A DNA stretch of 64,000 nt. Origin: Candidatus Latescibacterota bacterium. Its GTDB lineage: Bacteria; Latescibacterota; UBA2968; GCA-2709665. Positions within the stretch are counted from its first letter, which is position 1; every line of letters starts with the position of its first letter. The translations under genes were made by a program, and so were the position numbers. The stretch is taken from positions 1,984,001-2,048,000 of the forward strand of contig OZ242180.1 in the NCBI GenBank assembly GCA_965205485.1, in the 5' to 3' direction. The notes below the pieces were generated by a model. It was not told the origin of the DNA and ran no database searches. It saw only the letters and a list, made by a program, of their open reading frames with translations. This document shows positions 26,363 to 31,085 of this stretch, piece by piece.

Positions 26363-27541
26363 ATGAACTGCGCTTTCTCCGATCCTATCGCCAGAGTCGA
26401 AAAGGTCGTCCTCCACGGCAGGCGGCCGCGTTCCATCGGGCGGAACGCGCGTATCGGCGACCATGGCCCGGCCGTCACCGATCCGGTCGTGCGCATCTCC
26501 ACGGCGGGCGGCGCCGTGGGCGTCGGCTGGTCTTCCCTGGACAGGGATCGCGCCGAAGCGCTGCTCGGCGTGCGCCCATCGGATCTTTTCGATCTTCCCG
26601 GCGGGTCAACCGGCGACGGCGCGGCCATCGATCTTCCACTGTGGGATCTGGCCGCCAGATGTGAAGGGGTGCCCATGTATCAGCTCCTGGGCGCGCGCGG
26701 TTCGCGCGAAGTCGAACTCTACGACGGCTCCATCTATATCGACGACCTGGGGGTTTCCGACAGCGAAGCGAGGAGGATCTTCCACGAGGAAGTCCGAACC
26801 GGGCACGACGCCGGCTACCGCAATTTCAAAATCAAAATCGGCCGCGGCGCGCGCTGGATGCCGGTCCGGGAAGGTACGGACCGGGACGTGCTGGTGATCC
26901 ACGCCGTCCGGCAGGCCGCGGGACCGGATGCGAAAGTCCTGATTGACGCCAACAACGGAACCACGCTCAATATCGCTCTGGACATCCTCGAACGCTGCCG
27001 CGACGCCGGGATCTACTGGTTCGAAGAGCCGTTTCCTGAAGACCGGGCGTTCAATGAGGCATTTAAGGAAGCCATCGAACGTTGGGGCTACAATACGTTC
27101 GTGGCGGACGGCGAGTCCGGGCCGCCGCCGCCGGACTTCTTCGATATGGTCGAAAGTGGATGGATCGATATCGTACAGCACGATTTCCGTTACAAGGGGC
27201 TCACATGGTGGAAAGCCACCGCGGAACGCATCGAACCCTGGGGTGCGCAGTGCGCCCCCCACTGCTGGGGTAGCGTCATCGAGCGATACGCCCACGCCCA
27301 CTTCGCCGCTTCCGTTCCCAACTACAGCCTCCTGGAAGCCGCCCCCGCGGAGATGCCCGGCATCGCCCTGGACGGGTGGCGGATGAAAGACGGCAGGCTG
27401 ACCGTGCCCGATACGCCCGGCGCGGGATTCGACGTCGAAACGGACGTGCTGGAACGGGGCGTGACGTCGGATGGCGGATTTCGCATCGGCATGCACGATC
27501 GCCAGCGCCCCCGACGCCCTTCGCCGGCACGCGTATCCTGA
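26363..27541 (+). CDS. Mandelate racemase/muconate lactonizing enzyme family protein
   Basis: IDLPLWDL, KIK, LIDAN, WFEEP, ADGES, APH. Confidence 0.88.
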   Translation: MNCAFSDPIARVEKVVLHGRRPRSIGRNARIGDHGPAVTDPVVRISTAGGAVGVGWSSLDRDRAEALLGVRPSDLFDLPGGSTGDGAAIDLPLWDLAARCEGVPMYQLLGARGSREVELYDGSIYIDDLGVSDSEARRIFHEEVRTGHDAGYRNFKIKIGRGARWMPVREGTDRDVLVIHAVRQAAGPDAKVLIDANNGTTLNIALDILERCRDAGIYWFEEPFPEDRAFNEAFKEAIERWGYNTFVADGESGPPPPDFFDMVESGWIDIVQHDFRYKGLTWWKATAERIEPWGAQCAPHCWGSVIERYAHAHFAASVPNYSLLEAAPAEMPGIALDGWRMKDGRLTVPDTPGAGFDVETDVLERGVTSDGGFRIGMHDRQRPRRPSPARVS

Positions 27542-27551
27542 AAGGAAGTGC

Positions 27552-28643
27552 ATGCCAACGTACAACATCGCGGTACTCCCAGGAGACGGCGTCGGGCCGG
27601 AAGTGGTCGCGGAGGCGCTCAAGGTGCTTCTGGCGCTCGAGGAACCGCATCCCGATCTCCGTTTCACATTTTCCGAACACCGGGTTGGCGCCGGGTGTTA
27701 CGCCGAAACCGGGGTTGACCTTCCGGAATCCACGCTCGAGGCCTGCAAGCAGGCCGACGCCGTGCTCTTCGGCTCAGCCGGCGACCCGGACATCCGGTTT
27801 CCCGACGGCACGGAAATCGCACCGCAACTCACGCTGCGCTTCGAGCTGGACCTGTACGCCGGGATACGGCCCATCAGGAAATACCGTGGCGTGCCTCCGC
27901 TTCTGGACGGAAACCCGCCCCTCGACTACGTCATCATGCGAGAGAATACCGAGGGCCTCTACGCCTCCCGAGGCGCCGGGGTCCGCCTCGGAGACAGCCT
28001 CGCCGTGGACAACATGGTCATCACCCGCGCCGGTACCGAGCGGATCGTCAGATACGCTTTTGAAATCGCAAAGCAACGGAAGGGGGCGCCGGCCGACGGC
28101 AGGAGCCGCGTGACGTCAGTGGACAAGGCCAACATTCTGAAGAGCATGGCTTTTTTCAGGCAGATCTACGACGAGGTCGCGGAATCCTATCCCGGCATCG
28201 AACGGGACTATGCCTACGTGGACGCATTCACGGTGTACCAGCTTCGCAACCCCGCCTGGTACGACGTTGTCGTCGCGGAGAATATGTTCGGAGACATCAT
28301 CTCGGACCTGGCCGCAGCAACCATCGGCGGGATGGGGATGGCGCCCTCGGCCGACGTCGGCGACCGCTACGGCGTCTTCCAGCCGTCCCACGGCACCGCG
28401 CCGGATATTGCCGGGAGCGGTACCGCCAATCCCATGGCACAGATCCTCTCCGCCGGGATGATGCTATCGTGGCTGGGCGCACGCCATGACGATACGGAAG
28501 CCATCGCTGCCTCGGAGACGATCGACCGCGCGGTTGATCTGGCGCTGGGCGATCCGAAGAACCACCCGGCCGATCTCGGAGGCGCCGCCGGGACAACGAA
28601 AGTGGGCGACGCGGTGGCCGATGCCGTCGCGAACCCGGGTTAA
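27552..28643 (+). CDS. Isocitrate/isopropylmalate/tartrate dehydrogenase family protein
   Basis: PGDGVGPEV, RENTEGLY, VDKANI, NMFGDIISD, HGTAPDIAG. Confidence 0.92.
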   Translation: MPTYNIAVLPGDGVGPEVVAEALKVLLALEEPHPDLRFTFSEHRVGAGCYAETGVDLPESTLEACKQADAVLFGSAGDPDIRFPDGTEIAPQLTLRFELDLYAGIRPIRKYRGVPPLLDGNPPLDYVIMRENTEGLYASRGAGVRLGDSLAVDNMVITRAGTERIVRYAFEIAKQRKGAPADGRSRVTSVDKANILKSMAFFRQIYDEVAESYPGIERDYAYVDAFTVYQLRNPAWYDVVVAENMFGDIISDLAAATIGGMGMAPSADVGDRYGVFQPSHGTAPDIAGSGTANPMAQILSAGMMLSWLGARHDDTEAIAASETIDRAVDLALGDPKNHPADLGGAAGTTKVGDAVADAVANPG

Positions 28644-28660
28644 TACACGAGGAAAATGCC

Positions 28661-29983
28661 ATGACTAAAAAAGAAAAGAGGAGTCTCGTCAATCGCGCCG
28701 TGGGCGCCGAGTCGAAACGGGCACGGGTACTTTCGAGTAAGGTGCACGCATGGGCGGAACGGCCCTTCCGCGAAGTCAAGTCCTCGCGGGCGATCGCCGA
28801 CTACCTGGATTCTCGCGGCTTCGAGGTCGATTTCCCTTTCAACAAGATTCCCACGGCGTTTCGCGCAACCCGGGGAACCGGAGAACCGGCGGTCGGCATG
28901 CTGGGCGAATACGACGCCCTGCCCAACTGCGGCCCCGAAGAAGGTCAATGGGGTCACGGCTGAGGCCATAACCTCCTGGGCGTTGCCCCGGCCGTGGGTG
29001 CGGTCGCCGCTGCGAAGATCCTCGAATCAACCGGAATATCGGGCAAAATCGTGTACTACGGCTGTCCGGCGGAGGAAACCCTGGGTGGCAAAGTCTACAT
29101 GGCCCGCGACGGCGCCTTCCGGGACCTGGACGTCTGCCTTGCGTGGCATCCGGGGGATGAATCGGGCGTCAACAATTTCGGCGGGTCGTCGTTGGACTCC
29201 CTCGTCTATGAGTTTTTCGGCCGCACGGCCCACGGCGCGTCAGCCCACCGGGGCCGCAGCGCGCTGGACGGGGTGATGCTCACGGACGTCGCCGCCAACT
29301 ATCTCCGCGAGCACGTCCCCGAAAACGTCAGGATCCATTCCGTGATCCGCGACGGAGGCGACGCACCCAACGTGGTGCCGGCCTATGCGAAGATCTGGTA
29401 CTTCGTTCGAGGCAAGGACCGCGCGCAGGTCGACGACGTGCGGGAACGCCTCACCGCCTGCGCCAGGGGCGCCGCCAGGGCGACCGATACGAAGATGAAA
29501 TGGTCGCGAATCACCGCCGTGTACCCGCGTCTGCCCAACAAGGCGATGTGTGAAATCGTCCGAAAGAACCTCAAACTCTTCGGGCCTCCCAAACCGACGG
29601 AAGCCGACGTGAAGCACGCCGAAGGCCTCGGCTACAAGAAAGGTTTCAACACGAAGATCGCCAAGGGCAGCGGCTCGCAGGGACGGGGATCCACGGACGA
29701 GGACAACGTATCCTGGCTGGCCCCGCTGGGACGCTTCGAGATGGTCTGTTACGCGAAGGGAACGCCCGGCCACCACCGGGATATGGCCGCGCAGGCTGCC
29801 CTGCCCTTCGCCGATCGTGCGGTCCGGCAGACCGCGAAAGTCTTCGCCGGAAGCGCGGTCGACCTCTGCCGGGACCCGGAAAAACTGAAAAAGGCGCGCG
29901 CGGAGTTCGAAAAACGCTCGGAAGGATTCACATACGACCCGCTGGTTCGCAAGAGGCAGAAAGTACCCGTCGATCCGCCGTAG
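28661..29983 (+). CDS. AbgB-like M20 amidohydrolase with in-frame TGA (28961-28963) at the conserved Cys; candidate selenoprotein
   Basis: GEYDALP...GHG*GHNLLG...GCPAEE...WHP...GRSALD in one continuous frame. Confidence 0.8.
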
Positions 29984-30047: not shown

Positions 30048-31085
30048 ATGCCGGAAGTCACCCTCGAAGAAGCGCAGGCGGTCCACGATCGCTGCCTGAT
30101 CGTCGACGGCCACAACGACACGCCCGTGGAGCACGTACACCGGGGCGATCGTCCGATGGACCTGAAAAAGCGGGACCTCGCGTATCATATGGACATTCCT
30201 CGGATGCGTGAAGGCGGGTTCGACGCCGGCTTTTTCGTCGTCGGCAACGGTCCCACCGCAAACGTCCGTGTCACCCTCGAACAGACCCTGGCGTCGGTGG
30301 CGCTTTATCCCGACGACCTGATGCTGGTGTTCTCGTCCCGGGATGTTGAACGGGCGAAAGATTCCGGCAAGATCGGCATCCTGCTCACAATCGAAGGCGC
30401 CGGACGCTGGCTGGAAGGCGAAATGGATACATTGCGTCTCTACTACCGCCTGGGCGTTCGCTGCATCGGCATCACCCACGGCGAAGGCGGCGACGACCCC
30501 TCCCTGCTGCAGGGCAGCAGGAGTCCTTTCGGGCCGTGCACGCCTGAAGACCGCGAACGGGAACGCAGGAGCGCCAGCGGGCTGACGGACTTCGGAAAAG
30601 CCGTGCTGGAGGAGAGCAACCGGCTGGGCATCATCACGGACCTGGCCCATATCAACGACAAAGCGTTCTACCAGGTGCTGGAACAATCTTCGCTCCCGGT
30701 AACGATGACCCACACCGCGGCCTTTTCCGTCTGCAACCACTGGCGCTGCCTGACCGACGATCAGCTCAGGGCGCTGGCCGGGGCCGGCGGGGTGATGGGT
30801 ATCGCGTTTCTACCGGGATTTATCGATCCCGAAAACCCTTCCACGGACCGGATGGTCGACCATATCTGTCACGTGGCGGACCTGGTCGGCATCGACCACG
30901 TCGGCGTCGGCTCCGATTACGACGGCATGGGTTCGCAGAAGCCTGTTTTCGGAGACGTCTCGAAGCTTGTGCGCCTCACCCGCGCCATGCTCGCTCGCGG
31001 CCTCTCGGAAGACGAAATCCGGAAAGTCTGGGGAGGAAACTTCCTTCGACTCTTCCGTCATACCCTGGACCGAGGGCAGGCGTAG
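30048..31085 (+). CDS. Membrane (renal-type, M19) dipeptidase family protein
   Basis: DGHND, EG, DLAH, TH, GSDYDG, GGNFLR. Confidence 0.92.
   Translation: MPEVTLEEAQAVHDRCLIVDGHNDTPVEHVHRGDRPMDLKKRDLAYHMDIPRMREGGFDAGFFVVGNGPTANVRVTLEQTLASVALYPDDLMLVFSSRDVERAKDSGKIGILLTIEGAGRWLEGEMDTLRLYYRLGVRCIGITHGEGGDDPSLLQGSRSPFGPCTPEDRERERRSASGLTDFGKAVLEESNRLGIITDLAHINDKAFYQVLEQSSLPVTMTHTAAFSVCNHWRCLTDDQLRALAGAGGVMGIAFLPGFIDPENPSTDRMVDHICHVADLVGIDHVGVGSDYDGMGSQKPVFGDVSKLVRLTRAMLARGLSEDEIRKVWGGNFLRLFRHTLDRGQA

Follow-up and report, generated by a model that had tools for sequence, protein, structure and literature searches.

A putative selenoprotein of the M20D amidohydrolase family with selenocysteine in place of the metal-bridging cysteine in Candidatus Latescibacterota

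The gene at positions 28661–29983 (+) of the window (the whole stretch of DNA analysed, 64,000 nucleotides) very likely encodes an intact selenoprotein, an M20D amidohydrolase in which selenocysteine 101 would serve as a bridging metal ligand. In the proposed mechanism, the ribosome would initiate at 28661 and continue through a UGA codon to the TAG ending at 29983, SelB on a hairpin just 3' of the UGA bringing Sec-tRNA(Sec). The product would be a 440-aa cytoplasmic enzyme with Sec101 replacing the cysteine that bridges two divalent metal ions; His103, Glu139, His163 and His371 would be the other ligands and Glu138 the general base. The reading of the UGA as selenocysteine, put forward in the initial annotation, is supported by the conservation of the TGA, the presence of the selenocysteine genes and the agreement of contigs from independent runs, and we consider it nearly certain. 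Binding of the metals by selenium is highly probable.

The interval 28661–29983 is one frame of 440 residues followed by TAG, and its translation has a single internal stop, TGA at 28961–28963, which is codon 101, between GEYDALPNCGPEEGQWGHG and GHNLLGVAPAVG. Under translation table 11 the frame is split into the ORFs 28661–28963 and 28994–29983; the earlier description of these as one frame broken only by the TGA is borne out by the translation. A Shine-Dalgarno-like GAGGAAA (28650–28656, +) lies directly upstream of the ATG at 28661, and AGGA-type motifs precede the start codon in all ten orthologues inspected. A scan for promoters and terminators around the gene yielded nothing above shuffled sequences.

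The read-through protein scores 186 bits with the TIGR01891 amidohydrolase profile (cut-off 153.75) and contains the M20 dimerisation domain (Pfam PF07687). The AlphaFold model of the 440-aa protein, built with Cys rather than Sec at residue 101, has pLDDT 97 (148-row alignment). Its top fold match is HmrA (3RAM; TM 0.83/0.93, rmsd 2.0), and it also matches 7YH4 (PM20D2; TM 0.80 by query length) and 6SLF. The best solved sequence relatives are again HmrA 3RAM (E 1.6e-42) and human PM20D2 7YH4 (E 2.5e-32). His103, Glu138–Glu139 (29072–29077, +), His163 (29147–29149, +; aligned with HmrA His156) and the C-terminal His371 (29771–29773, +) are invariant in all 148 alignment rows. By analogy with M20 enzymes, we take Glu138 to be the general base, Glu139 to be a metal ligand, and the remaining residues, apart from the bridging one, to have the usual ligand roles. 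The TGA codon itself aligns with HmrA Cys93. Cys occupies this position in 146 of the 147 homologue rows, as well as in all 105 full-motif homologues among the best 120 database matches. The bridging of two Zn ions by a Cys is described for the M20D enzyme CsAga in a passage of PMC11511702. By profile, modelled fold and ligand set, the gene is an M20D amidohydrolase, its metal binding and activity being predicted.

HmrA (Staphylococcus aureus, MEROPS M20D) and human PM20D2 (beta-alanyl-lysine/Xaa-Arg dipeptidase) have GH[AG]CGH, PAEE, the His and the C-terminal His at the same positions as the studied protein. It differs from them in being just 25–27% identical, in having TGA instead of the Cys codon, and in an extra loop with Cys90 (28928–28930, +). 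This second cysteine is subfamily-specific, being found in 99 of 99 close but only 4 of 49 distant alignment rows. The wider AbgB-like group (35–45% identity) shares the GHGCGHN motif, and many close homologues carry the JGI name 'aminobenzoyl-glutamate utilization protein B', which was assigned automatically; the studied gene, in contrast, belongs to a distinct subfamily of 440 aa, which has Cys90, His372 and Arg373. No abgA/abgT-type neighbour is present among the six neighbouring genes scanned. Of the initial assignment to AbgB/M20D, the M20D part stands; among solved structures, HmrA and PM20D2 are closer than the AbgB-named 3io1. The host genome has one distant M20D paralogue elsewhere. 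The likeness to HmrA and PM20D2 makes small dipeptides or N-acyl amino acids, hydrolysed from the carboxyl end as by these two enzymes and AbgB, a reasonable if modestly favoured guess for the substrate class. HmrA favours Met-X dipeptides, according to a passage of PMC9486568.

The TGA is conserved. Among 61 related genomes, 49 (the host included) contain an orthologue that is 68–100% identical and interrupted by one TGA; in one further genome the orthologue is stop-free. Extending the comparison to 168 genomes of the phylum gives 67 with a match: 55 with TGA, one with TGC (G059) and 11 with distant stop-free homologues only (45–50% identity). The alignment places the TGA at codon 101 in all 55 TGA-bearing genomes, that is, in 55 of the 56 close orthologues. 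The latter cover 13 genera and three families of one class, the identity in genomes other than the host being 68–98%; these counts come from related genomes, which are kin and not independent. The records of the relatives are labelled Candidatus Latescibacterota, some being filed under Gemmatimonadota. In metagenomes, a pattern scan produced 63 matches, of which 32 are orthologues (68–92.5% identity) and one is a distant homologue; the other 30 were dismissed as unrelated chance matches. Homologues with TGA at the same codon, which the initial annotation had proposed to look for, are thus found in 54 other genomes and at 32 metagenome loci. Some of the sequencing runs in which the stretch occurs are metagenomes from sponges and marine sources. 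As for the proposed check of the reads at 28963, contigs of independent runs (X1 and X4) span codon 101 and differ from the studied sequence in one and zero other letters, respectively, with no difference listed at the codon.

The selenocysteine machinery that the initial annotation had suggested looking for is present: the host genome (G000; 5.1 Mb, 97% complete) has selA, selB, selD and tRNA-Sec. Three of these, selA (470 bits), selB (325 bits) and tRNA-Sec (73 bits), are clustered at C1:3225171–3228699, and selD itself contains an in-frame TGA. The tRNA-Sec is the sole tRNA with a UCA anticodon among the 48 host tRNAs. TGA is at the same time the commonest host stop, ending 1200 of the 2115 open frames of at least 400 codons, and 2129 of the 3939 host genes by crude gene prediction. 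The host has further TGA-containing genes of known selenoprotein families: two SelW/Rdx genes, a UGSC-like gene below the family cut-off, three of the 14 AhpC/TSA matches and an AhpD-like gene with CxxU.

The selA gene is present in 54 of the 55 TGA genomes. The remaining one (G032) is without selA; it has tRNA-Sec, selD with TGA and a piece of selB at a contig edge. This co-occurrence is largely expected, since selA is found in 125 of the 132 genomes of the class. None of the four selenocysteine genes was found in the 86% complete genome G059, which has the sole TGC orthologue; the link, being one event in an incomplete genome, is suggestive only.

Translation appears to proceed across the TGA. 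In codons 102–106 (28964–28978, +; GHNLL with the ligand His103), the residues are fixed and the codons free: among the 55 genes, the fraction of pairwise comparisons that differ is 0.554 for synonymous and zero for non-synonymous changes. Purely synonymous change is what translated codons would show. The dN/dS ratio is 0.147 for the N-terminal and 0.088 for the C-terminal half in genus g1, and 0.11 and 0.085 in genus g6. Such purifying selection (0.085–0.15) agrees with the earlier remark that both halves look undecayed. The final stop of the 55 TGA genes is TAG in 41 cases and TAA in 14, in contrast to the preference for TGA among host genes at large; TGA is the final stop in one of the 24 closed metagenome orthologues.

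The region downstream of the TGA features two adjacent hairpins, both candidate SelB sites. Hairpin 1, GGGC[GUU]GCCC (28978–28988, +), has its loop at +19 from the TGA, and all four pairs are retained throughout the 55 genomes and the 32 metagenome loci. Hairpin 2, CGGCCGU[GGGU]GCGGUCG (28989–29006, +), has its loop at +33, and all seven pairs are retained in every one of the 32 metagenome loci and in 54 of the 55 genomes, the remaining genome having six. Full pairing of both hairpins is seen in 54 of the 55 genomes, and none of the 58 Cys-coding loci has a complete copy of either. The loops of hairpin 1 in the 55 genomes are GTT (50), GTA (4) and ACA (1); those of hairpin 2 are AGGT (38), GGGT (16) and GGGC (1), that is, NGGY. 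The initial annotation had described a single hairpin at 28975–28991 with the loop G at +19. Its conserved 4-bp core stands, whereas the outer pairs and the proposed lower stem are not conserved: the outer CC/GG pairs are broken in 6 of 38 distinct rows, and the GGCC/GGCC lower stem is broken in 8 of 38. The second, stronger hairpin had been overlooked, and a recoding element of one hairpin is not what the alignment suggests.

At third positions of codons 107–114, 0.06 of pairs differ, compared to 0.54 gene-wide (205 four-fold sites). No other window of eight such sites in the gene has so low a value, and none of 100,000 random draws was as low, the sequences being kin and not independent. The alignment consensus over the same codons contains the two adjacent hairpins. 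In alignment A2 (42 rows chosen from genome and metagenome loci, 38 of them distinct) all 418 pair cells are paired, but 9 of the 11 pairs never vary, and two-sided compensatory changes are absent from the 38 distinct rows. One-sided changes are seen at position +32 of hairpin 2, which is C or T opposite G (33 and 22 genomes) with only pair-keeping changes, and at the pair +27/+42, where A-U replaces G-C in three of the 55 genomes and an A-C mismatch occurs in one. The energy of hairpin 2 is -9.3 kcal/mol, with 2 of 200 shuffles as good. Hairpin 1 in the extended form CC-U-GGGC[GUU]GCCC-C-GG (28975–28991) has -7.4 kcal/mol, with 19 of 200 shuffles as good, and its core has -4.6 kcal/mol. The 49 nucleotides after the TGA fold overall no better than shuffles (z +0.88), and the minimum-energy fold of the sequence itself differs from the two-hairpin structure. 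The initial suggestion that the VAPAV following the motif reflects RNA constraint is upheld in part: it is no proof, because Cys-type homologues also carry VAPAV or TAPAV.

The bacterial SECIS model, as given in the legend to Fig. 2 of PMC13188914, has a loop of 3–9 nt with G at position 1 or 2, a stem of 4–16 bp, a distance of 16–37 nt from the UGA and an energy of at most -7.5 kcal/mol. Hairpin 2 agrees with all four terms (loop at +33, 7 bp, -9.3 kcal/mol); hairpin 1 agrees with those for loop, stem and spacing, its energy lying above the limit. For hairpin 1 speak its position and GUU loop, which resemble those of host selenoprotein genes, where loops start at +17 to +25: GGUC at +18 in SelD, GUU at +23 in Rdx and GUU at +20 in the UGSC-like gene. 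For hairpin 2 speak its energy, which no value for hairpin 1 matches within the model, the exclusively pair-keeping changes at +32, and genome G050, which lost the loop-1 G (ACA) yet retains hairpin 2. SelB may bind either of the two.

Four other readings of the TGA have to be weighed. The first is a pseudogene, a Cys codon having been altered by a nonsense mutation or by faulty sequencing or assembly. Such a change does seem to have happened at this codon in a gut bacterium (L219), whose cluster at 99% identity comprises 247 full-length members. Yet the same TGA, as the sole internal stop, is shared by 55 genomes with identities as low as 68%, the above dN/dS values hold for both halves, and the X1 and X4 contigs agree at the codon; conservation across three families refutes this reading, which is left with a negligible probability. 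Just as improbable is a split gene, with separate subunits of 100 aa (N-terminal) and 329–335 aa (C-terminal), as the output of public gene callers would have it. The TGA forms are indeed represented in the database by such C-terminal fragments, making up 15 of the best 120 matches, some of them named 'peptidase dimerization domain-containing protein'; none of the 120, as stored, contains a U residue. However, a restart at GTG 28994 would delete residues 101–106 including the ligand His103, codons 102–106 vary only synonymously, and the called starts vary among genomes (fragments of 294–336 aa).

Decoding of the UGA as Cys or Trp, via near-cognate reading or a reassigned code, is very unlikely. 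As Cys is the residue of the family, leaky Cys insertion would still yield an active enzyme, but TGA is the commonest stop of the host and its only tRNA with a UCA anticodon is tRNA-Sec; besides, the hairpins are of the kind expected from the bacterial SECIS model (section 5 of PMC13188914). The last alternative accepts selenocysteine and gives it a partly redox or regulatory role, through a Se-S bond with Cys90 or a selenium-dependent UGA switch on the enzyme level. It draws on the invariance of Cys90 in all 99 close rows and its rarity in distant ones, and on the fact that most of the selenoproteins listed in section 7 of PMC13188914 are redox-related. On the other side, Cys90 is equally fixed in the Cys101 forms and so predates Sec, a CxxU-type motif is absent, all other metal ligands are invariant, and Cys and Sec forms interchange in the tree. 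We consider this role unlikely and retain Sec101 as a metal ligand.

Cys members of the subfamily are found at 56–76% identity, some named from Planctomycetota, Chthoniobacteraceae and Kiritimatiellae. Both trees constructed place the Sec forms within one clade, in which Cys proteins are interspersed. The quick IQ-TREE tree covers 49 rows, the 55 Sec forms having been thinned to 17; on it, the Sec/Cys label needs six changes, at least three of them forced by well-supported branches. We tentatively read this as one gain of Sec followed by several probable reversions to Cys, the database Cys forms having been compared as protein sequences.

No credible TGA form outside this clade was found in the genomes, metagenomes and viral contigs scanned. 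The one candidate for an independent origin of Sec, the AbgB-like gene of the gut bacterium mentioned above (L219:1186–2622, +; 33% identity, with the TGA likewise at the Cys codon), lacks both hairpins and, given its 247 full-length cluster members, is most likely a case of nonsense mutation or error. The TGA pattern is absent from all 339 genomes of the class of genome G168. Eight of 401 Planctomycetota genomes match it, none in an M20 frame, and the three matches in viral contigs are not M20 either. The YxeP-type pattern MH[AG]*GHD, with the asterisk for TGA, is present in none of the 168 genomes of the same phylum.

Upstream of the gene is a member of the isocitrate/isopropylmalate/tartrate dehydrogenase family (27471–28643, +; PF00180), and downstream is a gene of the M19 membrane-dipeptidase family (30048–31085, +; PF01244). 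A similar upstream ORF recurs at many loci of families f1 and f2 and not at those of f3, the loci being partly redundant; the M19 gene is conserved downstream at f1 loci, and the context differs in f3. Other neighbours encode a mandelate-racemase-type protein of the enolase family, a Zn alcohol dehydrogenase, a flavin reductase and a sodium:solute symporter. The neighbourhood suggests scavenging of small organic compounds and names no substrate.

Selenocysteine as a metal ligand replacing Cys is known in FdhA (Mo/W) and [NiFeSe] hydrogenase and predicted in SaoB, SaoC and HgcA/B, with the same decoding by UGA, hairpin and SelB (sections 5 and 7 of PMC13188914). Those proteins are redox or metal-handling ones, whereas in the present enzyme the two ions bridged by Sec would belong to a hydrolytic centre. 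Neither an M20 nor an amidohydrolase family is among the 119 prokaryotic selenoprotein families of Table 1 in the same paper (2026). That paper does include UshA-like and glutamine-amidotransferase-related families, so that selenoproteins resembling hydrolases have precedents. The words 'amidohydrolase', 'peptidase' and 'AbgB' have no match in the main text and part of one supplement of the BSepDB paper (PMC13326102), nor in the main text and four supplements of the deep-Sep paper (PMC12013277). Passages of PMC7804941, PMC6271292 and bioRxiv 10.64898/2026.06.08.730764 add nothing further. Literature listings, with BSepDB itself and subscription papers outside their scope, describe no M20 selenoprotein, and no NCBIfam selenoprotein model is among the five NCBIfam matches of the gene. 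Apparently, this is a real, conserved and uncatalogued selenoprotein family, prior mention being possible.

It is likely that the family represents a natural selenolate-bridged two-metal amide hydrolase of non-redox type, class-wide in marine and sponge bacteria, repeatedly swapping with Cys forms and decoded with tandem SECIS-like hairpins. One may speculate that the benefit lies in a selenolate that remains deprotonated and resists irreversible oxidation. Why enzymes retain Sec while Cys versions are far commoner is an open question (section 8 of PMC13188914), so far examined almost solely in redox enzymes. Natural Sec/Cys hydrolase pairs at 70–76% identity would provide a simple non-redox assay of metal affinity, pH range and oxidation resistance, keeping these apart from redox catalysis. 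Public annotations that split this gene would be corrected, and an overlooked selenoproteome of Latescibacterota is indicated.

Several other genes with in-frame TGA were observed in the host. A small DUF5069 gene (L251:483–755, -; host C1:703682–703954) has a TGA in YP*PAD and a hairpin with the loop at +20. Of 37 DUF5069 matches in 41 genomes, 35 contain a TGA at some internal position, and the family is absent from the 119-family table of PMC13188914. A gene that resembles DUF5069 by eye adjoins the M20 selenoprotein gene at several f3-type loci, namely L107:4371–5264 (-) and four others.

Two paralogues, L249:558–1520 (+) and L248:812–1783 (-) (host C1:4221141 and 4799692), encode signal-peptide-containing, beta-barrel-like proteins, one with a PF13557 match. 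The TGA is situated right after the leader (GVS*RRPVLPGG), followed by a GGGC-loop hairpin at +18. One TGA is present in all 33 matches from 17 of 41 genomes, making this a candidate selenoprotein family. Tandem AhpC/TSA-Ig-dockerin-like fusions (L254:257–1237 and 1170–2270, +; C1:4604637–4606014) have UxxC-type TGA codons, each with a GGUC-loop hairpin at +19. In L250:423–1226 (+; C1:5003318), the TGA separates a hydrophobic leader from a TlpA-like CxxC domain, and the gene may be either a selenoprotein or a pseudogene; its hairpin CCGU[GGGU]GCGG at +18 shares its core with hairpin 2 of the M20 gene. Finally, the intergenic segment 34852–35511 (+) of the window, translating to HRYLHCYVGNHKGCPYKFEWSVSGG, resembles host C1:4962399 (-) and is possibly a dispersed repeat.
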